A DNA stretch of 64,000 bases from Patescibacteria group bacterium (GTDB taxonomy: Bacteria > Patescibacteriota > Microgenomatia > Levybacterales > UBA12049): the NCBI GenBank assembly GCA_038063415.1, contig JBBTVD010000006.1, positions 73,948 through 137,947 of the forward strand. Direction: 5' to 3'. Below, piece after piece: positions 26,100 to 38,219 of this stretch. Under the pieces are notes generated by a model. That model saw only the letters and a program-made list of their open reading frames with translations. It ran no database searches and had not been told where the DNA came from. The position numbers and the translations under genes are program-made. Position 1 is the first letter of the stretch; each line of letters begins with the position of its first letter.

Positions 26100-27134
26100 C
26101 TAGATTACTTTTATCGTTCCCCGATACATCCCCATACTGCACATAAAAGCAATTTCACTCCCCGGTTTATCAGGAGCTGTAAAGGTTATGGTATCCGAAT
26201 TACCTTGAGGGACAATCTTTTGTATGTCATATTCGGGCAGAGTAAATGCTTGTGCACATCCCCCCGCTCCCTCATTGACTAAATGAAGCGTAACCGTTGA
26301 TCCTGCTTTCACAGACAAATTTTTGGGTGAATAACCATCATCAGTAATCGTAATCGTTGCACTCTGGACAACTGCAACATCCGATGTATCACAAAATACG
26401 AATAGACAAAAAGTATTCCGTATCGTATTTCCCAAAGTAAACGTATTCCCCGTAAGAGCAATACTATTGTCGAATGTAAAAACGGCAAGTAAAATCAACA
26501 CTCCGGCTGCAATTTTTGTAAATCGCTCTTTAAAAAGATCACCTAATTTAGTCGCAAAATAACCAAGAAGAAAGAATACGGGAGAAGTTCCAAGGACAAA
26601 CGCAAAGAGAATTGCCGCCCCGGATAATGGATTACCTGAAGAAATAGCAAGCGCCATCATGGCTTGCGTCGTCCCACATGGGATAAAAATAGTCAATGCA
26701 CCAAGAAGTGCAGGTGCAAAGATTGCTTGGCTTTTTGACTCTTTACGAATATACCGAGTAATAAATCGTGGCGGTTGGATAACGAAATAACGGAAAATAG
26801 GATGCACATGTAACATCTGAAGAGCCGTCCCGAGCATAAAAAGCGCAACCAAAATCTGCATAATAATTGTCATGGTGATTGATACCTGAAAGAGAGACCC
26901 AAGCCAACCAAGAAGCATACCAAGGAACGTATATGCTAGTAACTTTGATAGAAGAAACCAAGCTATTGGAGCAGCATGACCAGCAGTCGTTTTTTGTTGT
27001 AAGGTGTCCTGAGTCTTCTGTGCAATAGTCGTTGCTAAGAGCCCCCCCTGCACCGCTAAGCAACTGAGACCCCCAACAAACAGTCCTGTTAAAAAGACTG
27101 TCCAGATATTCATATTGTTGGTAAATTCAAACAT
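26100..27134 (-). CDS. DsbD_2/CcdA-like polytopic membrane protein fused to a C-terminal cupredoxin-like domain
   Basis: The N-terminal ~240 aa have six TM helices with conserved Cys in TM1 (GGLSCLAV) and TM4 (FIPCG). The C-terminal ~100 aa form a beta-sandwich with a CxMxMxxG tail (AFMCSMGMYRGTIKV). Confidence 0.5.
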   Translation of the reverse strand: MFEFTNNMNIWTVFLTGLFVGGLSCLAVQGGLLATTIAQKTQDTLQQKTTAGHAAPIAWFLLSKLLAYTFLGMLLGWLGSLFQVSITMTIIMQILVALFMLGTALQMLHVHPIFRYFVIQPPRFITRYIRKESKSQAIFAPALLGALTIFIPCGTTQAMMALAISSGNPLSGAAILFAFVLGTSPVFFLLGYFATKLGDLFKERFTKIAAGVLILLAVFTFDNSIALTGNTFTLGNTIRNTFCLFVFCDTSDVAVVQSATITITDDGYSPKNLSVKAGSTVTLHLVNEGAGGCAQAFTLPEYDIQKIVPQGNSDTITFTAPDKPGSEIAFMCSMGMYRGTIKVI

Positions 27135-27148
27135 ACGACGATATAAAA

Positions 27149-29530
27149 TTATACCTTGTATCTCTTCAATAATAAAGAATTAGTTACGACAGAAATAGAA
27201 CTGCTTGCCATAGCAATTGATGCAAAAATCGGATTCAACAAAATGCCAAAAAATGGATACAGCAGCCCCATCGCTACTGGAATTAAAATGATATTGTACC
27301 CAAAAGCCCAGAATAAATTGAGTCGTATCGTCCGCATTGTTTTTTTAGAAAGGGTGATTGCTTTGGCGACACTACGTAAGTCTTTATTGATAAGCGTTAT
27401 AGCAGCAGCTTCAATAGCAACATCAGTCCCTTTCCCCATGGCAATACCAATATCAGCTACGGCAAGTGCTGGCGCGTCATTGATGCCATCACCAACAAAA
27501 GCCACCAGCCCCTTGTCATTCCCGCGCAGGCGGGAATCTACTGTCATTAATTTTTTAACGATTTTCTCCTTTTCTTGTGGCAATACATCTGCATAGACCT
27601 GTGTAATCCCAACCTGTTTTGCAATTGCATCTGCCGTACGTTTATTGTCGCCTGTAACCATCGAGACCGCTATGCCCATCTGTTGTAATGCAGCAACACC
27701 AGCTTTTGCTGACTCTTTAACCGTATCAGCAACAGCAATCACACCGAGGATTCCTGGATCCCCACCTCCGCGGGAATGAAGAGAGGAGGCGAGCATCATG
27801 ACTGTCTTTCCTTCCGATTCGAGTCTCTGAATTTGTTGATCAACTGTCATTCTGGCTCGTCCAGAATCAGATCCTGGATGCGCTTCTCCTCCAGCTGGCG
27901 GAGCGTTTACCAGGATGACGTCAAGTGATATTTTCTCCATCTCCATCAATCGTCTATTCCCCAACAGTACTCGTTGTTTCTGAATTATTCCTGAGACACC
28001 CTTTCCTGCAATAGCTTCAAACCCCTCGACTTTTTCCAGAGAGATTTTCTCCTCCTCAGCTTTCTTCACAATCGCATCTGCCAATGCATGTTCTGACCCT
28101 TTTTCAAGAGATGCAGCAAGCCGTAGCATGTCATCCTGAACTTGTTTCAGGATCTTTTCTTTATGGATTCCCGCCTCCGCGGGAATGACAAAAGGGATAA
28201 TATCCGTCACCTCAGGCTTTCCATTCGTGAGAGTTCCCGTCTTATCAAAAACAACTGTTGTAATGTTATTTGCCAATTCCAGACTTTGCGCATCTTTGAT
28301 AAGAATCCCAAGCTCTGCACCTTTGCCAGTACCGACCATAATAGCTGTCGGTGTCGCAAGGCCCATCGCGCAAGGACAAGCAATGATAAGGACAGCAACC
28401 GTATTGAGCATGGCATAGAGGAAAGCAGGCTGCGGACCAAAAAGATACCAGATACCAAAGGTAGCAAATGCAAGCATAACCACGATGGGAACAAAATAAG
28501 AAGAAACGGTATCTGCCAGACGTTGAATTGGAGCCTTACTCCCCTGAGCCTCCTGAACAAGTTTAATAATTTGAGAAAGCACTGTCTCTGATCCTACTTT
28601 GGTTGCTGTATAGAGAAATGTTCCGTGTTTATTAAACGTCGCTCCGACAATCACATCACCTTTTTGTTTCTCAACAGGAATACTTTCTCCCGTAATCATT
28701 GATTCGTCAATCGAAGAGGTTCCTTCAAGAATCTCTCCATCAACGGGAATCTTCTCTCCTGGACGAACACGGAGTACATCCCCAACCTGTACCTGTTCAA
28801 TAGGGATATCAATCTCCTTACCATCTCGAAGTACCCTTGCTGTCTTTGCCTGTAATCCAATAAGCTTGGTAATCGCTTGAGAAGTTCCTGCTTTTGCCTT
28901 TGCCTCAATATATCTCCCAAGTAAAATAAGACCGATCACAATCGTCGCCACATCAAAATAGGGCATAATCTCAACACCTAATCCCATAAAAATCGTTGGG
29001 AAAAACGTAACAAAAGCAGAATACCCATAGGCAACGGTAGTACCCAATGCGACAAGGGTGTCCATATTGGATGTACGGTGTTTAAATGCGGAAAAAGCTG
29101 TTTGGTAAAATGCTGCTCCCGCCCAGAATTGTACGGGTGTTGCAAGAAGTAGCTGTAGCCAGAAATTTTGTAGAAATGCTGGAGCCGTCGTCATAAGTCC
29201 AGGGAAGCTCCCCCAAAGAATGAGACCCCCCAACACCAAACTCACAATAACTTTCGTTCGCAGCATGGCTAGTTCATTTTGCTTTTCTTTTGCTTGCATA
29301 TCCTCACTTTTTTCGGCAATCTCCATTGTATAGCCTGTTTTGGCAATGGCATCCGCAAGCTGTTCTGGAGTACAGGTATCGGTATTATACGTAATGGTTG
29401 CTTTTTCCGTCGCCAGATTAACGACCGCATCAGTTACACCTGGTGTCTTTTTCAATGCACGCTCAGTCACACGAATACACGAGGCACAATGCAGACCTTT
29501 GATTGGAAATGATTTTTTAACGTTAGTCAT
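27149..29530 (-). CDS. copA: Copper-translocating P1B-type ATPase carrying four in-frame hairpin-repeat insertions
   Basis: N-terminal HMA domain (GLHCASC), CPC (ACPCAMGL), DKTGTLT and [12 protein letters not shown] motifs are all present. The ORF is intact at 793 aa. The extra peptides [59 protein letters not shown] and [11 protein letters not shown] coincide with the repeat elements. Confidence 0.9.
27515..27539. repeat. GTCAT-hairpin repeat unit inside copA (gtcattcccgc-gcag-gcgggaatc)
   Basis: 7-bp stem with a 4-nt loop. In the copA frame it is translated as [11 protein letters not shown]. Confidence 0.7.
27748..27785. repeat. Degenerate GTCAT-hairpin repeat unit inside copA (...ccacctccgcgggaatga)
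   Basis: It shares the ctccgcgggaatga arm with the unit at 28166-28189. In the copA frame it is translated as [12 protein letters not shown]. Confidence 0.5.
27846..27919. repeat. Composite GTCAT-hairpin element inside copA (gtcattctggctcgtccagaatc + gatcctgg...ccaggatgac)
   Basis: The first unit is identical to 38265-38287. In the copA frame the whole element is translated as [28 protein letters not shown]. Confidence 0.7.
28130..28189. repeat. Two GTCAT-hairpin units inside copA (gtcatcctgaacttgtttcaggatc ... gattcccgcctccgcgggaatgac)
   Basis: The first unit differs by 1 nt from 38226-38250. In the copA frame the pair is translated as [19 protein letters not shown]. Confidence 0.7.
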
Positions 29531-29928
29531 ATTTTATTAACCTTTCTCCAACTCTTTATGAGTTCTTTCCAGTAGAAAACCCCAATAATTTCAAAGACAA
29601 TATTTGTTATAACTCCAGGATAATAGTTAAACGTTCTTATGGCATCAATCAAATGATGTAACTCGAAAATAAAGAAAATACCATACAGTGTTAATACCCT
29701 CAATGTCCATTTCCCGCCTAAGACAAGAAGAGCGACTGGTCCAATCATCAGAATCCATATTATGTGTGAAGAATAATATGTTGCTTGAGGGATTGTCTGA
29801 AACAAACTACTAAAATATAACATGATCCAATCATTATGGTAAAAACCAGAAATAATTTCTTCAAAGAAATGTAAATACACAACAATTATTGAAAAAATGA
29901 AAAGCCTTTTTAATTTTTTTGATAGCAT
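29527..29928 (-). CDS. HXXEE-motif small membrane protein
   Basis: The ATG at 29928 is preferred over the TTG at 29940. The protein has four TM helices and the motif YLHFFEEI. It overlaps the copA start by 4 nt. Confidence 0.4.
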
Positions 29929-29929
29929 A

Positions 29930-30295
29930 TTATTGAACAATTATCTTTCCATGAAACATATTCATGCCACAGGAAATTTCGTATGTACCCTCTTTTTCAG
30001 GCGTAACAGAGATTGCTATTGTCTTATGCAGAGGGAGATATTTTCGTATCTTAAAATCTGGCAGAACTACTTCTTCGAGGCACGAGCTTGGATCACGACG
30101 GATGAAGTTGAGGGTTGTCTGTTTCCCTTTTGGAATTGAAATGACATTGGGAGAATAACCTCCTTCAACGACAATATCGACACGCTTTGTTTTTACGACT
30201 ATCGCTGCTTCTTCTTTTTTCATCAAGAAGAACCAATAGGTAAAGACAATACCAGTGATACTAAATAGAGCGACGAATAATGTATCAAGTTGCAT
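29930..30295 (-). CDS. Membrane-anchored cupredoxin-like (Cupredoxin_1-type) protein
   Basis: 121 aa with an N-terminal TM helix and a beta-sandwich ending in EISCGMNMFHGKIIVQ. It is paralogous to the C-terminal domain of 26100-27134. Confidence 0.5.
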   Translation of the reverse strand: MQLDTLFVALFSITGIVFTYWFFLMKKEEAAIVVKTKRVDIVVEGGYSPNVISIPKGKQTTLNFIRRDPSSCLEEVVLPDFKIRKYLPLHKTIAISVTPEKEGTYEISCGMNMFHGKIIVQ

Positions 30296-30332
30296 AAATA
30301 AGTTATCTCCTAAAATTAATTTTTAAAACATT

Positions 30333-30408
30333 GTCATTCCTGCGAAAGCAGGAATCCAGCTTGTTAAACTCTTTTTATTAGCTAGATCCCCGCATTCGCG
30401 AGGATGAC
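30333..30408. repeat. Two GTCAT-hairpin units in the DUF305/cupredoxin intergenic gap
   Basis: gtcattcctgcgaaagcaggaatc lies at 30333-30356 and gatccccgcattcgcgaggatgac at 30386-30408. Confidence 0.65.
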
Positions 30409-30426
30409 AAAAATACATAACAAGTG

Positions 30427-31023
30427 TTACCAGCTCAGGAGCCAGTCACGCATCTGATTAATCTCAGTCGTCTGTGCTGCGATAATATCATCTGCGAGCT
30501 TACTCATTTCTGGTCTCTCTGTCCCGCTTTTGAGCATATTTGCCATCATCACTGCCATCTGATGATGTGGGATCATCTCCTCGACAAAAACTTTGTCAAA
30601 ATCCTCCGCTTCTTCGAGACGATGAAAATCTGTTTCATCACCCATCATACCCATATGCATTGCGGGCGCGCCCATCATACCGTGGCCAGACATCACTTCT
30701 TGCCCTTGCGGGACATCTTTACCAAACCAGTCATTATACCACTGCTTCATTTGGGTAATCTCGTTACTTTGTGAATCAATGATATTTTGAGCAAGCTGCT
30801 TAACCTCTTCTCGTTGTGCCTTTTGCAACGCAAGCTTTGCCATCGTGATTGCATCTTCGTGGTGTGGAATCATTTGTTCGATAAAATGTGCATCAATCGT
30901 ATCTGAACGAGCCATCGTAGCTTGATTTCCGTAACCAATACCCATCATCTGCATCATCCCCAGCCAAACAAGCCCACCACCAGTCAAGAGTCCGATTAAG
31001 CCATACTTTATTTCTTTTTTCAT
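30427..31023 (-). CDS. DUF305 family protein (periplasmic, copper-related) with a Met/His-rich segment
   Basis: The ATG at 31023 (MKKEIKYGLIGLL, signal/TM) is preferred over the overlapping longer ORF, and is preceded by a GGGGGTGAG RBS. Two MIPHH repeats (FIEQMIPHHEDAITMA, FVEEMIPHHQMAVMMA) are present, together with the Met-rich stretch MSGHGMMGAPAMHMGMMG. Confidence 0.6.
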   Translation of the reverse strand: MKKEIKYGLIGLLTGGGLVWLGMMQMMGIGYGNQATMARSDTIDAHFIEQMIPHHEDAITMAKLALQKAQREEVKQLAQNIIDSQSNEITQMKQWYNDWFGKDVPQGQEVMSGHGMMGAPAMHMGMMGDETDFHRLEEAEDFDKVFVEEMIPHHQMAVMMANMLKSGTERPEMSKLADDIIAAQTTEINQMRDWLLSW

Positions 31024-31027
31024 ATTC

Positions 31028-31300
31028 TCACCCCCTTTTCTTAAAAACCTGCATAATTTCCGTAATCGATTCATCAGCTTTTCCTTTTGTAATCGATTCA
31101 GCGACACACCCTTTGAGATGGTTTTCAAGAAGGACATTCCCTGTTTCCTTGAGTCCACTTTCAACTGCTTGCATTTGATGGAGAACATCGATACAGTATG
31201 CATCAGCTTCAACCATAGAGATCACTTTATCTAAATGTCCCCGGGCAATTTTGAGTCGATGGAGTATCCTCTCTTGTGTATTTTTTGGTCTATATGTCAT
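31028..31300 (-). CDS. csoR: CsoR/RcnR family metal-sensing transcriptional repressor
   Basis: 90 aa with the motifs RLKIARGHLDKVISMVE, YCIDVLHQ and HLKGCV matching the Cys-His-Cys Cu(I) ligand pattern of CsoR. Confidence 0.7.
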   Translation of the reverse strand: MTYRPKNTQERILHRLKIARGHLDKVISMVEADAYCIDVLHQMQAVESGLKETGNVLLENHLKGCVAESITKGKADESITEIMQVFKKRG

Positions 31301-31358: not shown

Positions 31359-32213
31359 TTACCGGATAAAATAAGTAACGATATCTAAAAAAGCATCCTC
31401 ATCCACACTTTTTCCAATAAAATACTTCCCTTCACCTTTTGTCTTTGCTCGTGATTGCAACTCGGGGCTTATATTACCAACCGTCCCGACATACTGACAA
31501 TGTTGCATAAAATGCCAATCACCGAGCGTGTCTCCTATACCCAATGTCTCTGAAAAGTCTATGCCTAGATGCGTAAGAACATCAGCTACTGCTTGTCCTT
31601 TTGAGGCACCTTTCTTGGTGATAACAGCTGACTCAAAAGGAGACATCGCAGGATGACCGCTCCACATATAATTGATATCTTCTTTGAATTCTTCTAAGAC
31701 AGCTTCTATCTTTTTCTTATCCGTATCATTATCAAATAATGCCACTATCTTTATAAGATCAAAATCGATAACATGTTCGGAGAGAGAAGTAACAGCGATA
31801 TGCTCTTTCTGTAAAATGGCAACTCTTTTTTCTGTCAACAAATCTCGTTGATTACTTTGAATAAAATAGTCATCGATTCCGTAACATTCGAGATAGATAT
31901 TTTTTCTGACAAGTTGCTTAATTAGTTGTGTGGCAAGGTCCCTTGCTAAAAGATGTTTCTTGCTAAAATTATTATTTTTAGGATTAAAAATAACTGCTCC
32001 ACCGTCACTAATATGAGGATTAGAGAGTCCTGTTTTTTTTATAATTTCTTGGATTGAGAAGCCAAACTTGCCGGTACAAAGGATGACGAGCATCCCTTTT
32101 TTGTTTAGATCAGAAAGGCGCCGTAAGACTTTTTCATTGGGAATGGGGAAATTAATACCAAGCTTATCACCAACTAGTACACCATCAACATCAGTAACAA
32201 TTGCTTTGATCAT
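31359..32213 (-). CDS. HAD-IIB (Cof-type) phosphatase
   Basis: Motif I is VTDVDGVL. C-terminal GIGDTLGDWHFM is motif IV. Its start overlaps the stop of the upstream gene (ATGA). Confidence 0.7.
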   Translation of the reverse strand: MIKAIVTDVDGVLVGDKLGINFPIPNEKVLRRLSDLNKKGMLVILCTGKFGFSIQEIIKKTGLSNPHISDGGAVIFNPKNNNFSKKHLLARDLATQLIKQLVRKNIYLECYGIDDYFIQSNQRDLLTEKRVAILQKEHIAVTSLSEHVIDFDLIKIVALFDNDTDKKKIEAVLEEFKEDINYMWSGHPAMSPFESAVITKKGASKGQAVADVLTHLGIDFSETLGIGDTLGDWHFMQHCQYVGTVGNISPELQSRAKTKGEGKYFIGKSVDEDAFLDIVTYFIR

Positions 32214-34117
32214 ATATTTCGATAGACCTCTCTTCTTCTTTTGATATCCACAATTTCAAAGCTTCGTTGACCTGAGGTTGATTCTCCTTCTGTAAGTAAA
32301 ACTCTTACTCCTTTTGCCCCTATATTGATCCTATACGAATATCGCTTCCTTCCATCTGACCCTATCCCCAACATTTTTAGCCTTCCTACTCCTCGTTTAT
32401 TATACTCATTTATTCTTGTTATAACTTTTTCCTGATCACCAGCTGTTAGACCTTTCATAACTTCTCCCATTTCCGCCTGTTCTTTCAGGACAATTATGTT
32501 TCTTGCCTTTCCAGTTTCTAAACTTACCGTTTCTGCGACTACCGAAAGCGCATCTCCACTTTGCCTATGACGTCGTTTGGTACTTGCTACGAGAGTGGTA
32601 GTTCCCGAGTCAGGGGGTATTTTAGGTTGCGGTACTTGATTACCCTTGGGAGGCTCTACTTTTCTTACTACTGTTGCTTTCCTTCTTTCCCATTCGTCCT
32701 TCGTTGTTTTTTCTACCTCTTGCAAAGCTGCCATAACAACCCGTTTTGCTGCCGATGAAAATTGCTGCATTTTATCTGATTCAGGATCTTCGAGATAGTT
32801 CCATTCAAATTCTTGTCTTTTTGCATCCACTCCCAACCAAAGGCTTGTACCTTCATTTTCTGCCTCATACGTTATATCAACCACAAATTCCATTGGCTTA
32901 CCAGGACTAAAGGTAAGGGTTACTGATTGAGGAGGTACAAACTCTGTCCATGAGAGAGCATCAATGTCAATATCGTACACATCCTTATCTCTTGGCTTTT
33001 TTCCAATAATTTTTGCAACAGATACTCTGTAGTCATTAAATGAAGGTGTGTCAGCGATAGCATCCCCCTCCCTTTCTATAAATATCTCCTCTATCTCATC
33101 TGCCGTACGTAACTGGGTAAAAGCAGAGAGGATATCGACATATCCTTCTACCATTCCTGCAAATTTTCGATAAAAATCGCCATGCTCAGGGAGATCTCTT
33201 TGCTCCATGGCTTTTCTAAAAAGATCTTGTAAACCTTCTGCTCTATTGTTGCTAAAAAGGTGAATTAAAAAAGACTGTATTTCAGGGGATGCACCAAAAT
33301 ATTCTTGTATTTTTTCTTTTAGAGCAGTAAATTCTTTTGCGCTAGGATCGATAATAGTCATAGCAAGACCATCTCGGAATTCGTGTGTTTTCTCAAGAAG
33401 TGTTTCAGTTACTGGAGCTGTTAACGGGAATCTTCTTTTTATGTCTCTATATTCTGGCATATCTCTATTATTAGAAAGGTTTATAACTCCAGTCAAAATA
33501 TTTCCTGTTTGGCCAGCAGCCTCTAAGACGATATTTGGGAATTCGCGAGCCAATTCTGAGGGATTTTCTTCCAAGAGAGTACGTTGAAACTGTTCCCCCG
33601 GAAAAAGCTTTAAAGCCATAAAAAAACTGAGCTGAGCTGCCAAAGGAAGTTTGTTTCGTTTCGTCTGTTCTGCTATCTTTCGTAAAGAAACCCCATGCGA
33701 TGCTAAATCAACTGGTAAGATTGAGGAAAAAGCCTCTAATGCTGCAAGTTCACTTGCGTCTTTTCCTCTCCTTTGCAAAGCGGTAAAAAAACGAGAAAGA
33801 GAGTCTCCTATTTTAATCATTGCACCTGCCCTGTGTACGACTTGAGCTCCAAACATTGCATTGGTCACTTCTGCAGAGGTACTTGCATCTTTCTTTAGAC
33901 CAAGAAGCTCCTCTAACGAGGCTTTCCAACTCAGATATAGCTGATTTATTGCGGGCTCAGACAAATAGCTGCTAATACTGTTTGTCAGAGCTCTTTTTCT
34001 ATCCACCAGACTTTTGTCTTCCCACGATAGAGCCCTTTGATCGAAATTAACAGAATGTTCCTGCTTCTTTCTCATTAGAGTATCAGGAGTAACAAAAGCT
34101 GGACCTTCAGTTGTCAT
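32210..34117 (-). CDS. Large hypothetical cytoplasmic protein with a C-terminal RelE/ParE-fold-like domain
   Basis: 635 aa with no TM helix or signal peptide. The last ~90 aa (VITRINEY...RYSYRINIGAKGVRVLLTEGE...SFEIVDIKRRREVYRNI) match the yelRvgdyRiiY...vhRkdvY pattern of RelE/ParE toxins. It sits between secA (9-nt gap) and the HAD gene (overlap). Confidence 0.5.
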   Translation of the reverse strand: MTTEGPAFVTPDTLMRKKQEHSVNFDQRALSWEDKSLVDRKRALTNSISSYLSEPAINQLYLSWKASLEELLGLKKDASTSAEVTNAMFGAQVVHRAGAMIKIGDSLSRFFTALQRRGKDASELAALEAFSSILPVDLASHGVSLRKIAEQTKRNKLPLAAQLSFFMALKLFPGEQFQRTLLEENPSELAREFPNIVLEAAGQTGNILTGVINLSNNRDMPEYRDIKRRFPLTAPVTETLLEKTHEFRDGLAMTIIDPSAKEFTALKEKIQEYFGASPEIQSFLIHLFSNNRAEGLQDLFRKAMEQRDLPEHGDFYRKFAGMVEGYVDILSAFTQLRTADEIEEIFIEREGDAIADTPSFNDYRVSVAKIIGKKPRDKDVYDIDIDALSWTEFVPPQSVTLTFSPGKPMEFVVDITYEAENEGTSLWLGVDAKRQEFEWNYLEDPESDKMQQFSSAAKRVVMAALQEVEKTTKDEWERRKATVVRKVEPPKGNQVPQPKIPPDSGTTTLVASTKRRHRQSGDALSVVAETVSLETGKARNIIVLKEQAEMGEVMKGLTAGDQEKVITRINEYNKRGVGRLKMLGIGSDGRKRYSYRINIGAKGVRVLLTEGESTSGQRSFEIVDIKRRREVYRNI

Positions 34118-34126
34118 AGGGTACTT

Positions 34127-36913
34127 TTATTGTACTTCAGGATAGTGGCATTTCTTCCACTTCTTGCCACTCCCACACCAGCAGGGATCGTTGCGGTTAA
34201 GCTTTTTCTTCTTTTCGATTGGTGTACTTTTGGTTTCAGAAATTTCACCTTCTGGTCTGTTGGTTATGAGTTTTCGTTGCTTTGGTCTGGGAAGTGGCGC
34301 TTCCGTATGTGCAGGCCCTGAATGAGTTGATCCATCTGCATGCGTATGGGTTTCTGTCTCATGTACATGTCCCGAGGCACCATGGGGAGGATTGGCAGTT
34401 GGGGATTGTTGTACCTGCATTTTAAAGATTCGATGCACTACTTCATCGTCAATGGCAAACATCAACGATTCAAACATTCTAAACCCTTCGTTTTTATATT
34501 CAACGAGGGGATCACGCTGTGCATATCCTCGAAGTCCAATCCCCTGGCGAAGATTATCCATCGCGTCTAGATGACTCATCCACAGGTTATCAATAACAGA
34601 AAGTAACACAAACTTCTCGATCTGACGCATGAGCGGACTCCCTAATTGCTTTTCTTTTTGACCATAGACGTCATCAGCCAACTTCGTGAGGAATGTTGTT
34701 TTCTCCTCTACGCTATGCTGCTGTTCAAGCTGTTTTAAGAGTTGTTCTTGTGAGGCATCATCAAAAGGAATAACGGTCACAAACTCTCCAAGGATTCGCT
34801 TATTCGCATCTGCTTGCTCTTCAGACTGCTCCGCGATAGTCATCGTAACGAGAGATGAAAGAGCGCTTTGGATACGGTTCTGCACCTCTTCGGTAAGAGA
34901 ATCATCTTGTGCATGAGCCTTCTCAAGGATCTTATGACGAAGAGCATAAATGATCTCACGCTGCTTGTTCAGTACATCATCATATTGTACGAGGTGTTTT
35001 CTGGTATCAAAATGAAACCCTTCTACTTTTACCTGTGCATTTTCAATTGATCGAGAGACAAGTGGATGGGTAAGTGGCACATCCTCTGGCATATTAAACC
35101 GTGTCATCATGCCAGCAATTCGCTCGCCACCAAACAGTCGCATGATATCGTCATCAAGTGCTACAAAGAAACGTGATGCACCAGGGTCTCCTTGTCGACC
35201 AGATCGACCTCGTAACTGATTGTCGATACGACGAGACTCATGGCGCTCCGTACCAATCACATACAGTCCACCAAGCTCCAAAATCTCATCATGCTCTTTC
35301 TGCCATTTCTTATAGGCTGGACTACTCGTATGGGTAGTGCCATCTTCATTTTGCGGAGGCTCTCCACCCAAGATAATATCAACTCCACGACCTGCCATGT
35401 TGGTTGCAATGGTCACAGCACCCTTTTTGCCAGCCTGGGAAATAATCTCAGCCTCTCGTAAATGATTCTTTGCATTGAGAAGTTCGTGTTTGATACCTCG
35501 TCTCTTAAGTAATTCTGAAAGGATCTGGTTTTTATCAATAGAGGTAGTACCAACAAGTACTGGTTGCCCTGTTTTATGAGCATTGTCAATTTCGGTCACT
35601 ACTGCTGAAAATTTTGCTCTCCCCGTCTTATACACTGCATCAGCATGATCAGTACGACTTACATTGCGATGCGTTGGGATCACAACCACATCAAGTTTAT
35701 AAATTTTGCGGAATTCTTCAGCTTCGGTCACCGCAGTACCCGTCATACCAGAAAGCCGCTCATACATACGGAAATAGTTTTGTAGAGAGACGGTCGCGAG
35801 CGTCTTTGATTCCCGCTGTATTGGCACATTTTCTTTTGCTTCAATTGCCTGATGAATACCTTCTGAAAGCCGTCGACCTTCCATCAGACGCCCCGTAAAC
35901 TCGTCAACCAAGATTACTTGATTGTCTTTGACAATATATTCTTTCTCACGATGGAAGAGGGTTCGTGCTTTGAGCGCTGCTTCAATATGATAGACCGTAT
36001 CAAAATCCTTTTCATAGACATTGGCTACACCAAAAAGTTTTTCGATCTTACCAATGCCATGATCTGTCAGATGGGCTGTCCGCATTTTTTCATCAACCTT
36101 GTAGTCAATTTCTGAGGAAAGCTTCCCCACGAGCGTTGCATATTCATAATATTTGGCAGAAGGTGATTCATCAGGTGCAGAGATAATATGTGGCGTACGG
36201 GCTTCATCAATAAGCACAGAGTCTACTTCGTCAACAATAGCGAAGTAGTAGCCTCGTTGGCGGATATTTGCCAAGTCTTGCTCCATATTGTCCCGCAGAT
36301 AATCAAAGCCAAACTCTGAATTAATTCCATAGGTGACATCTGCTTGATAGGCTTCACGACGACTAATAGGCTTCAGATGGGTTAACCGTGCGTCAGAGGC
36401 CTTGTCATCGACATAGGTAGGATCGTAGAGGTACGATCGCTCACTAATCATTGAAGCAACTGATACTCCTAAAAAATGAAAGACTGGTCCCATCCAGCCG
36501 GCATCACGACGTGCAAGATAATCGTTCACCGTAACGAGATGCACACCTCTCCCCGTTAATCCATGCAAATAAAGCGCTGGTACGGCAGTAAGCGTTTTTC
36601 CTTCACCGGTTTTTTGCTCAGCAATTTTGCCCTGAAAGAGCGTAATCGCACCCATCAGCTGTGAATCAAAATGGCGAAGCCCAAGTGTTCTCCAGGCCGC
36701 CTCACGGGCAAGTGCAAAGGCTTCTGGAAGAATAAGATCAAGTGATTCACCTGAAGCAACACGCTCTTGGAGTTCTTTTGTTTTCTTAGGAAAATCTTTA
36801 TCTTTCAGTTTTTTAACAGATGCTTCAAGACCATTAATTCCAGATACAATGGTCTGGATGGACGTAATCTCGCGTTTGTTGGAATCGAAGAGTTTGTTAA
36901 TGAAGCTTAACAT
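34127..36913 (-). CDS. secA: Preprotein translocase ATPase SecA
   Basis: 928 aa with the DEAD-like motor, and it ends with the zinc-finger tail CWCGSGKKWKKCH. Confidence 0.95.
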   Translation of the reverse strand: MLSFINKLFDSNKREITSIQTIVSGINGLEASVKKLKDKDFPKKTKELQERVASGESLDLILPEAFALAREAAWRTLGLRHFDSQLMGAITLFQGKIAEQKTGEGKTLTAVPALYLHGLTGRGVHLVTVNDYLARRDAGWMGPVFHFLGVSVASMISERSYLYDPTYVDDKASDARLTHLKPISRREAYQADVTYGINSEFGFDYLRDNMEQDLANIRQRGYYFAIVDEVDSVLIDEARTPHIISAPDESPSAKYYEYATLVGKLSSEIDYKVDEKMRTAHLTDHGIGKIEKLFGVANVYEKDFDTVYHIEAALKARTLFHREKEYIVKDNQVILVDEFTGRLMEGRRLSEGIHQAIEAKENVPIQRESKTLATVSLQNYFRMYERLSGMTGTAVTEAEEFRKIYKLDVVVIPTHRNVSRTDHADAVYKTGRAKFSAVVTEIDNAHKTGQPVLVGTTSIDKNQILSELLKRRGIKHELLNAKNHLREAEIISQAGKKGAVTIATNMAGRGVDIILGGEPPQNEDGTTHTSSPAYKKWQKEHDEILELGGLYVIGTERHESRRIDNQLRGRSGRQGDPGASRFFVALDDDIMRLFGGERIAGMMTRFNMPEDVPLTHPLVSRSIENAQVKVEGFHFDTRKHLVQYDDVLNKQREIIYALRHKILEKAHAQDDSLTEEVQNRIQSALSSLVTMTIAEQSEEQADANKRILGEFVTVIPFDDASQEQLLKQLEQQHSVEEKTTFLTKLADDVYGQKEKQLGSPLMRQIEKFVLLSVIDNLWMSHLDAMDNLRQGIGLRGYAQRDPLVEYKNEGFRMFESLMFAIDDEVVHRIFKMQVQQSPTANPPHGASGHVHETETHTHADGSTHSGPAHTEAPLPRPKQRKLITNRPEGEISETKSTPIEKKKKLNRNDPCWCGSGKKWKKCHYPEVQ

Positions 36914-36968
36914 AAGACTATTATACTACCACATTTTAGCCTGGAAAAGAAGCACTACTCTTAGGTAG

Positions 36969-38219
36969 TTACGATTTCTTTAGTATATCTTTCCCCATAT
37001 ACTTGCGCAATACTTCTGGGACAACAACACTCCCGTCTTCTTGTTGATAATTCTCAAGGATGGCAACTAAGGGTCGGGTAGAAAAGGCTGTTCCATTCAA
37101 AACATTGAGATACTTTTTTTCATTACCGTCCTGATACTTCATATTGAGACGGCGTGATTGGAAATCCGTTACGGTCGACGCAGAAGTCATCTCACGATAC
37201 TTTTGCTGTGTCGGAATCCATGCTTCGATATCATATTTTCTTGCTGCATTAAAACCAAGATCGCCCGTACATACGTTAATCACTTGATAAGGAATCCCAA
37301 GCTGTTGCATAAACCGTTCTTCAATCGAAAGCAGAAACTCATGCTCACGATCATCATCGCCTTCCGCTACAAAAGACACCATCTCTGTCTTATCAAATTG
37401 ATGCACACGAAAAATGCCCCGCGTATCTTTGCCATAACTTCCTGCTTCACGTCGAAACGCAGTTGAAAAGCCAACATATCTTCGTGGCAAATCTTCTTTT
37501 CTCAATACATCATTCATGTGATACGGAACAATTGATTGCTCAGCAGTGCCTACGAGATATAAGTTTTCATCTTCAATTGTGTAGATCTCCTCTTTATCTC
37601 CCATCTGAGTATAGCCAAGCCCTTCCATGATTTCTTTTTTGATCATGACTGGTGGAACAATTGGAATAAAACCTTCTTTGATGAGGGTATCAAAAGCATA
37701 TTGACGAAGCGCAAATTCAAGCAGTGCACCGTCATTTTTCAGATAATAGAACCGTGCACCACTTACCGTTGCAGCTTGTTTGACGTCAATAATACCCAGT
37801 GACTCACCAAGAACCAGATGATCTTTTGGCTCAAAAGAGAAGCTTGTTGGATCGCCAACGACTTTTATTACTTTATTTCCCGTCTCATCTTTGCCGATTA
37901 TCACGTCAGGTTTTGCTGGATTGGGAAGCCTAAGAAGCAGGTTACGGAGAGTTTGTTCTAAATCTTTTAGTTTGGCTTCTTCTTTCTCTAGTTTTTGTTT
38001 ACGAGATTGGGCATGCTCTTTATTAAATTGATCTGGATTTTTTTTAATCTGTTCATTCAGAGCATTTTTTTCTTCACGAAGACTCTGAACCTTTTGAGCA
38101 GTTTCCCGATGAAGGCTATCTACCTGCAAAAGATCATTTATATTAATTTCAACGCCTTTATTTTTAGCAGATTCTTCTACAGCTTTCGGATTTAGACGAA
38201 TATATTTTATATCTAGCAT
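36969..38219 (-). CDS. serS: Seryl-tRNA synthetase
   Basis: 416 aa with an N-terminal coiled-coil arm and class II aaRS motifs (FRRE, GLGYTQ...). Confidence 0.93.
   Translation of the reverse strand: MLDIKYIRLNPKAVEESAKNKGVEININDLLQVDSLHRETAQKVQSLREEKNALNEQIKKNPDQFNKEHAQSRKQKLEKEEAKLKDLEQTLRNLLLRLPNPAKPDVIIGKDETGNKVIKVVGDPTSFSFEPKDHLVLGESLGIIDVKQAATVSGARFYYLKNDGALLEFALRQYAFDTLIKEGFIPIVPPVMIKKEIMEGLGYTQMGDKEEIYTIEDENLYLVGTAEQSIVPYHMNDVLRKEDLPRRYVGFSTAFRREAGSYGKDTRGIFRVHQFDKTEMVSFVAEGDDDREHEFLLSIEERFMQQLGIPYQVINVCTGDLGFNAARKYDIEAWIPTQQKYREMTSASTVTDFQSRRLNMKYQDGNEKKYLNVLNGTAFSTRPLVAILENYQQEDGSVVVPEVLRKYMGKDILKKS

Follow-up and report, generated by a model that had tools for sequence, protein, structure and literature searches.

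A Patescibacteria protein family with a probable RelE/ParE-superfamily module behind a predicted body without known relatives

What is a protein that appears to end in a toxin domain doing among the core genes of a Patescibacteria genome? Textbooks present RelE/ParE toxins as two-gene modules for addiction and defence, and Patescibacteria are ultra-small, host-dependent organisms whose genomes keep few genes. The question is raised by an open reading frame (ORF) directly downstream of secA in a 64,000-nucleotide stretch (hereafter the window) of contig JBBTVD010000006.1, which derives from a Patescibacteria metagenome-assembled genome from Hainich groundwater. An original prediction, made from the letters alone, described a cytoplasmic protein of unknown function with a RelE/ParE-like C-terminal domain. 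Based on structure prediction, remote-homology searches and comparison of homologous loci, we conclude that the gene is a member of a conserved Patescibacteria family of about 650 amino acids and three parts, and that its C-terminal module is very probably homologous to the RelE/ParE superfamily at the domain level. The ORF is as predicted and lies on the minus strand, which had been left unstated, and the C-terminal peptide quoted at the time matches the translation exactly. The protein is divided as follows.

32210 to 34117, minus strand: complete ORF with ATG start, 635 amino acids plus a TGA stop
32663 to 34117, minus strand: N-terminal body, residues 1-485 (modelled fold about 27-485), predicted local distance difference test score (pLDDT) in AlphaFold2 mostly above 90
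32504 to 32662, minus strand: flexible, basic, proline-rich linker, residues 486-538, disordered, pLDDT 41-67
32213 to 32503, minus strand: C-terminal RelE/ParE-superfamily module, residues 539-635, assigned by AlphaFold2, Foldseek, Pfam, tblastn and hhalign

The structural evidence comes from an AlphaFold2 model built on a 108-member alignment (full length, mean pLDDT 89.7, predicted template modelling score (pTM) 0.86). Within it, the module consists of a strand (539-543), two helices (547-553 and 559-575), four further strands (580-585, 591-597, 604-610 and 617-627) and a short helix (628-631), with a pLDDT of about 90-97; modelled alone it gives the same result, with a pLDDT of 90.5. This predicted topology agrees with that given for RelE (PMC11980606). 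In Foldseek searches of the module against the PDB, HP0892 was found at E=0.1 (probability 0.66), YoeB at E=0.21 (0.57) and Mycobacterium tuberculosis RelK at E=0.24 (0.72, template modelling (TM) scores 0.41/0.49), and the highest probabilities among full-length small-domain matches belong to RelE-family toxins. The best structural matches are three phage proteins of about 100-130 amino acids in BFVD (A0A345M764, A0A6M5C8J8 and S5W9W6), which match the module only, with probabilities of 1.00, 0.98 and 0.90 and TM scores reaching 0.59. The three entries are unnamed and are probably phage RelE/HigB/Gp49-like toxins.

At the sequence level, ParE_toxin (PF05016) is the sole Pfam family matched by several family members in one register and to the end of the profile, all below threshold, and Gp49, of the same clan, is matched by two further members. 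Single Pfam matches were not counted as evidence, since an NCBIfam control on 75 modules returned singletons only and showed that isolated matches of E~0.003 arise by chance. The most direct connection to bona fide toxins runs through one member, P0067, which belongs to the family through its body alone (family-body hidden Markov model E=4e-137). A tblastn search with P0067 of 7.3 Gb of plasmids gave exactly two matches at E<=1, both in annotated RelE/ParE family toxin genes. The encoded toxins, WP_281009461 and WP_104925420, stand in classic toxin-antitoxin arrangements and reach 47.5 and 24.2 bits on PF05016. A phage tblastn search with the module of the query itself gave one match, in a tape-measure gene, which was judged to be chance.

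Profile-profile comparison by hhalign used a 72-member module profile from which three bridging members had been removed. Against the Pseudanabaena toxin it gave a probability of 86%, P=5.6e-6 and a score of 33.0 (shuffled null 10.8 ± 2.4, maximum 21.2), and against the Rahnella toxin 43%, P=2.5e-4 and 25.0 (null 10.0 ± 2.1, maximum 17.8). The E. coli RelE profile, whose seed sequence is identical to chain y of 4V7K, was aligned at 17%, P=0.0015 and a score of 22.4, or 13%, 0.0021 and 21.7 with the bridges removed; this score was reached by none of 200 column shuffles and one of 200 block shuffles.

Several observations weigh against the assignment. Each standard single search of the module stays below significance: Foldseek against the PDB yields nothing at E<0.1, with TM scores of 0.37-0.49 and with NTF2- and cystatin-like folds interleaved among the matches, and Pfam gives no match for the query, its best members scoring 18.3, 17.7 and 15.0 bits on PF05016, whose gathering threshold is 23. 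BLASTP likewise failed to match the module to E. coli RelE. Furthermore, the two plasmid toxins were found via a family member, and some selection bias stays after its removal. Hence, the RelE/ParE-like domain of the original prediction holds up through convergent remote-homology evidence (AlphaFold2 topology, Foldseek, Pfam register, tblastn and hhalign); the structure search proposed as its check ranks RelE-family toxins highest by probability, with all E-values at 0.1 or above.

Which residues of a RelE-type active site does the module retain? The catalytic constellation of RelE comprises K52, K54, R61, R81 and Y87 (E. coli numbering). Using the hhalign register and conservation counted over 124 members, four positions of the module can be placed on it.

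32303 to 32305, minus strand: codon of R605, aligned to RelE R61; Arg in 121 of 124 members
32234 to 32236, minus strand: codon of R628, in the RelE R81/R83 region with an offset of 2 in the alignment; Arg in 116 of 124
32222 to 32224, minus strand: codon of Y632, aligned to RelE Y87; Tyr in 81 and Phe in 36 of 124
32330 to 32332, minus strand: codon of R596, aligned to RelE K54; Arg or Lys in 94 of 124

R628 corresponds to the Arg of the 'hRkd.Y' motif of canonical toxins, and together R605, R628, R/K596, K/R629 and Y/F632 maintain a basic patch. The Arg/Tyr constellation, which the original prediction had singled out for inspection, is thus RelE-like at R605, R628, R/K596 and Y/F632 and departs from RelE at the K52 equivalent, which is the non-basic S594, and at Tyr632, replaced by Phe in 29% of the members.

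The family itself was revealed by an exhaustive HMMER search against 1.84 billion cluster representatives, in which the number of relatives was 194 at E<=1e-3, 130 at E<=1e-10 and 26 at E<=1e-30. With few exceptions they measure 600-700 amino acids, with alignments spanning from about residue 100-250 through the last residue, and the architecture is uniform across about 190 clusters (clustered at 50% identity, the members being about 20% identical). Body and C-terminal module occur together in 145 of the 150 best matches, and three more are truncated within the linker. The remaining two, P0108 and P0146, carry the same body with another C-terminus, whose sequence is still RelE/HigB-like and in which His replaces Arg within the last ~120 residues ('LLKIGNHRQ' and 'IEGVYHHNEF'); this suggests either exchange of the module within the superfamily or extreme divergence. 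No small stand-alone version of the module was found: it is always the C-terminus of a 600-700-residue protein, and matches of about 100 residues are fragments. Four small homologues considered as independent toxins (P0139, P0141, P0147 and P0148) were likewise rejected as fragments of full-length members. Near-invariant positions are P194, P258, R301, Y316, W439, P445 and L465 in the body, as well as N573, R605 and R628. Both homologous loci that carry an organism name come from this group, one from a Patescibacteria bin and one from Candidatus Levybacteria. The family appears to be previously undescribed and vertically inherited. We note that word-indexed protein search, with the single sequence or with the 108-member profile, returned the query alone; families this divergent escape such faster searches and need exhaustive HMMER.

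What, then, precedes the module? In the AlphaFold2 model the body is mostly helical from 27 to 373, followed by a β-meander (380-439) and a long helix (451-485), and the linker shows a weakly conserved motif (Y..R / P....L). The statement of the original prediction that the first ~540 residues match nothing stands against Pfam, NCBIfam, PADLOC, PHROGs, PDB sequences and Foldseek searches of the PDB and BFVD. Scans of the query with the first five of these resources yielded no more than noise (DUF1609 at E=0.005-0.05, mS71 at E=0.57), Pfam on 73 full-length members gave only singleton noise outside the module, and neither the family profile against PDB sequences nor Foldseek against BFVD matched the body. 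The whole model against the PDB reached E=0.035 at best, with a TM score of about 0.1 to generic helical repeats. No antitoxin domain (YefM/Phd, RHH, HTH, HigA or BrnA) was detected in residues 1-538 by Pfam, PDB or Foldseek searches. The predicted body is accordingly, by every test applied, a fold and family without known relative. AlphaFold2 appears to dock the module confidently on the body, since the pTM is 0.86 over 635 residues and the ~480 residues of the body would give at most ~0.76.

The genomic setting was assessed in about 15 homologous loci, retrieved with a 30-member subset of the family alignment. The inspected contexts are all housekeeping genes, syntenic within lineages, and none includes a defence gene, a mobile element or a small gene resembling an antitoxin; a conserved operon partner, considered as a candidate, was ruled out on this inspection. 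The original prediction had the gene embedded in a housekeeping operon and translationally linked to secA and the downstream HAD gene. Housekeeping neighbours are indeed found in the inspected loci and the linkage is real here, but the neighbours vary by lineage and the linkage is not a property of the family. With X denoting the family gene, the closest syntenic relative (P0003, 38% identity) has serS-secA-isochorismatase-X-permease-NUDIX-rpoBC, and the serS-secA synteny of the window is common to this relative only. Other lineages have def-fmt-X with an M50 protease gene nearby, a divergent glyA, X and then folA-(dNK)-thyA (four loci), or X with HU, AdoMet_dc and miaA. No family members were found on viral contigs, and PADLOC and PHROGs gave no match, with no defence-island residence among the inspected neighbourhoods.

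We also observed that two independent lineage-specific arrangements put X beside folate or formyl-Met genes. Loci in such settings are L013 (6749-10052), L012 (1596-6111) and L004, L005, L018, L019 and L023 (glyA, X, folA-thyA). The adjacency could be chance in genomes of about 800 genes, or a link to one-carbon status or translation initiation.

Taking these data together, the explanation that we favour, at a confidence just short of even, is that the module is a domesticated RelE-type ribosome- or mRNA-directed domain, held in cis by the body until a signal arrives and used by the cell for its own translational control. On this view a multidomain member of the RelE/ParE (BECR-fold) superfamily, made as one chain and with no antitoxin, would have been domesticated in Patescibacteria as a chromosomal gene that is inherited vertically. 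Domestication is proposed because the housekeeping contexts are syntenic within lineages, the GC content of the gene equals the background (0.403 versus 0.398 for the window), there are no viral copies and neither PADLOC nor PHROGs gives a match. By its residue pattern the module would be of the RelE (ribosome/mRNA-directed) rather than the ParE (gyrase) type; it would engage mRNA in the A site of the ribosome, probably as a nuclease that cleaves it. Regulation of the module would fall in cis to the body, standing in for an antitoxin, by keeping it docked and sterically barred from the ribosome, and a signal would free it on its tether of ~50 residues. The protein would presumably serve the organism's own physiology, by controlling translation or mRNA turnover conditionally, and not plasmid addiction.

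On the other side of the balance, catalysis may be weak, different or absent, because the K52 equivalent is non-basic and Tyr632 is Phe in 29% of the members. The docking of the module on the body in cis is a predicted feature, read from the pTM arithmetic alone. Finally, the position of X is retained while its sequence changes quickly, as would fit a conflict gene no less than a weakly constrained regulator. Between the two syntenic genomes identity is 80% for rpoB, 76% for secA, 64% for serS and 38% for X; within X (window 32210-34117 against L009 7001-8965) the module is 52% and the body 39% identical.

A more far-reaching version, which we regard as unlikely although worth stating, is that a RelE toxin captured early in the evolution of Patescibacteria became a core single-chain translation factor, i.e. 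an A-site mRNA endonuclease or sensor gated by a novel-fold domain of 55 kDa and serving mRNA turnover, ribosome rescue or one-carbon/formyl-Met coupling. The coupling is proposed because the gene repeatedly adjoins fmt-def or glyA-folA-thyA.

The rate of evolution bears on the strongest of the competing explanations, namely a CapRel-like fusion of sensor and toxin that protects against phages by abortive infection, in which the body senses a phage protein and releases the RelE-type module to shut down translation. We consider this to have a small but real chance. The body changes about twice as fast as the neighbouring genes and the module is better conserved than the body; two of 150 members carry a different RelE/HigB-type module on the same body, no separate antitoxin is present, and the predicted docking and flexible tether would suit a switch between open and closed states. 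Fused or multidomain RelE/ParE proteins are, moreover, generally read as defence toxins (PMC11980606). However, in the inspected loci the family is never found in defence islands or by mobile elements, and it lacks PADLOC matches and viral copies, and its uniform architecture over ~190 clusters at ~20% identity looks like vertical inheritance.

The incomplete active site permits another reading, which we hold to be rather doubtful: a catalytically dead RelE fold reused as an adaptor that binds the ribosome, RNA or a protein, with the real activity in the body. The non-basic K52 equivalent and the Tyr632 substitutions agree with it, a harmless module would need no antitoxin, and the length and core conservation of the body (W439, P194, R301) befit an enzyme or scaffold. 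Against this, R605 and R628 are 94-98% invariant and the basic patch is maintained, the body has no catalytic-looking motif or family match, and the sets of catalytic residues vary widely among active RelE, YoeB and HigB subfamilies.

It is improbable that the resemblance is convergent and the C-terminus an unrelated small α/β domain, e.g. similar to the uS5 N-domain/dsRBD or to NTF2. In the profile search against PDB sequences, mitochondrial uS5 (uS5m, E=0.17-0.8, best 0.17) ranks at or above RelE (9G12, E=0.31) and RelG (3G5O, E=0.4), the Foldseek matches in the PDB are weak and mixed with other folds, and chance singletons reach E~0.003 in NCBIfam. The uS5m candidate was nevertheless rejected, as uS5 is missing from the top 50 Foldseek matches. 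Five independent kinds of test point to one superfamily, the hhalign z-scores are ~7-9 against shuffles, and the alignments reach the exact C-termini of the toxins.

ParE acts on DNA gyrase through its C-terminal tail, and a gyrase inhibitor in place of an RNase has a very slight chance here. Its best argument is that the leading Pfam signal is named ParE_toxin, but PF05016 mixes RelE-type mRNases, E. coli RelE included, with ParE (PMC11980606), and ParE toxins lack the RNase catalytic residues (PMC11980606). The module looks RelE-type because the Arg/Arg/Tyr pattern is kept and the family proteins end 3-6 residues past the Tyr, leaving no ParE tail. A secreted polymorphic effector that ends in a BECR domain and is followed by an immunity gene can practically be dismissed: the large N-terminal region, the next gene overlapping the stop and a weak Foldseek match to the CdiA-CT structure 6vek (rank 24) recall such toxins, but the protein lacks a signal peptide, transmembrane segment and secretion or trafficking domain, its C-terminus is the most conserved part and constant in 145 of 150 members, and the downstream gene, a Cof-type HAD hydrolase here, differs in every lineage.

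How does the domesticated, cis-regulated module that we favour compare with known systems? Relative to monodomain RelE/ParE toxins (E. coli RelE 4V7K, RelK 3OEI, HP0892 2OTR, Staphylococcus aureus YoeB 7V6W, WP_281009461 and WP_104925420), it is similar in size (~95 amino acids) and has conserved Arg, Arg and Tyr (or Phe) where RelE R61, the R81 region and Y87 align. It differs in lying below every curated threshold, in the absence of a K52 equivalent, in insertions between strands that are particular to the family, in a conserved N573-x2-G-x-G loop, and in following an N-terminal region of 540 residues, encoded among chromosomal housekeeping genes with no antitoxin gene. Type II toxin-antitoxin systems such as RelBE, ParDE and HigBA have an adjacent antitoxin and a small stand-alone toxin, unlike the present family.

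Multidomain and fused BECR-fold toxins have been surveyed by Gerdes 2025, including antitoxin-toxin fusions, N-terminally extended RelE, PtuZ of PtuXYZ and the membrane-bound ToxM (PMC11980606). That survey was Pfam-seeded, never mentions Patescibacteria and expressly excluded multidomain proteins lacking a recognisable antitoxin gene or domain (PMC11980606). Both its fused toxins and the present family place a RelE/ParE-fold domain in a larger chain, a single gene replacing the bicistronic pair (PMC11980606). The partners in the surveyed systems, which are read as defence, are antitoxin domains (YefM, RHH, HTH/YiaG, HigA), PIN-like domains or transmembrane helices, whereas here the partner is a ~480-residue region of unknown fold, with no antitoxin element, a core-gene setting and a module below the Pfam threshold. 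The arrangement, called undescribed in the original prediction, is therefore new as to partner and context, while multidomain RelE/ParE proteins as such were already described (PMC11980606); the novelty lies in the kind of partner and the context, not in the multidomain principle. With CapRel the proposed logic is alike, i.e. a toxin and a neutralising or sensing domain in one chain with closed and open states (PMC9712102). CapRel differs, however, by a toxSAS tRNA pyrophosphokinase fold, the opposite domain order, a prophage or defence-island context and a demonstrated phage trigger (PMC9712102). Polymorphic toxins, CdiA-CT and others, are also large proteins ending in a BECR-type domain, but they are secreted, with variable C-terminal cassettes followed by immunity genes (PMC3482391), and the present family is cytoplasmic, with a constant C-terminus and no conserved downstream gene.

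At the locus itself, the gene is tightly packed between its neighbours, which Pfam identifies as secA (five SecA domains) and a Cof-type HAD hydrolase gene (Hydrolase_3, 1e-29).

34127 to 38219, minus strand: upstream co-directional housekeeping genes secA (34127-36913) and serS (36969-38219)
34118 to 34126, minus strand: 9-nt spacer AAGTACCCT from the secA stop to the ATG, without an obvious Shine-Dalgarno sequence
32210 to 32213, minus strand: ATGA, in which the stop overlaps the start of the Cof-type HAD hydrolase gene downstream (31359-32213)

The TAA stop of secA occupies 34127-34129 and the ATG of the ORF 34115-34117, and its TGA stop (32210-32212) overlaps the ATG of the HAD gene (32211-32213), so that the 9-nt distance and the ATGA overlap noted in the original prediction are both seen in the sequence. 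The same applies to its two further statements on the gene: no small antitoxin-like ORF adjoins it, and the 635-residue protein has neither a transmembrane segment nor a signal-like N-terminus (best 19-residue Kyte-Doolittle mean 1.12), in agreement with a cytoplasmic location.

Elsewhere in the window, a copper/metal homeostasis cluster lies directly downstream of the HAD gene (26100-31300, minus strand). It comprises genes for a CsoR-like repressor (Trns_repr_metal), DUF305/DUF4142, a cupredoxin, an HXXEE protein and a CopA-type ATPase, as well as a further membrane protein with a cupredoxin-like C-terminus. Three GC-rich palindromic copies of 26-32 nt (GTCATTCCCGCG.AGGCGGGAATC), at 27509-27538, 27755-27786 and 28164-28195, are located in frame within the copA-like P-type copper ATPase ORF (27149-29530, minus strand) and add peptides such as 'IPAEAGIH' and 'SRLRGNDKG'. 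They look like small hairpin or miniature inverted-repeat transposable element-like insertions tolerated in coding sequence. Rfam gave no family at gathering score on either strand of the 64-kb window.

In conclusion, we here describe a probable RelE-type module in a new setting, in which it is permanently fused to a large protein of unknown fold, lacks an antitoxin and appears to be passed on vertically among core genes. Since Pfam, NCBIfam, PADLOC and PHROGs do not detect this family, censuses of toxins and defence systems that build on those profiles miss it. An active module would make the family a natural example of toxin control in cis, and possibly a layer of translational regulation specific to the candidate phyla radiation (CPR); an inactive one would mean that a toxin fold has been put to new use as an adaptor for the ribosome or RNA. 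In both cases, the ~480-residue body represents a confidently predicted fold without a relative in the PDB or BFVD. Should the reading as a core translation factor be true, the protein would be the first 'housekeeping RelE' and a lineage-defining component of CPR translation.

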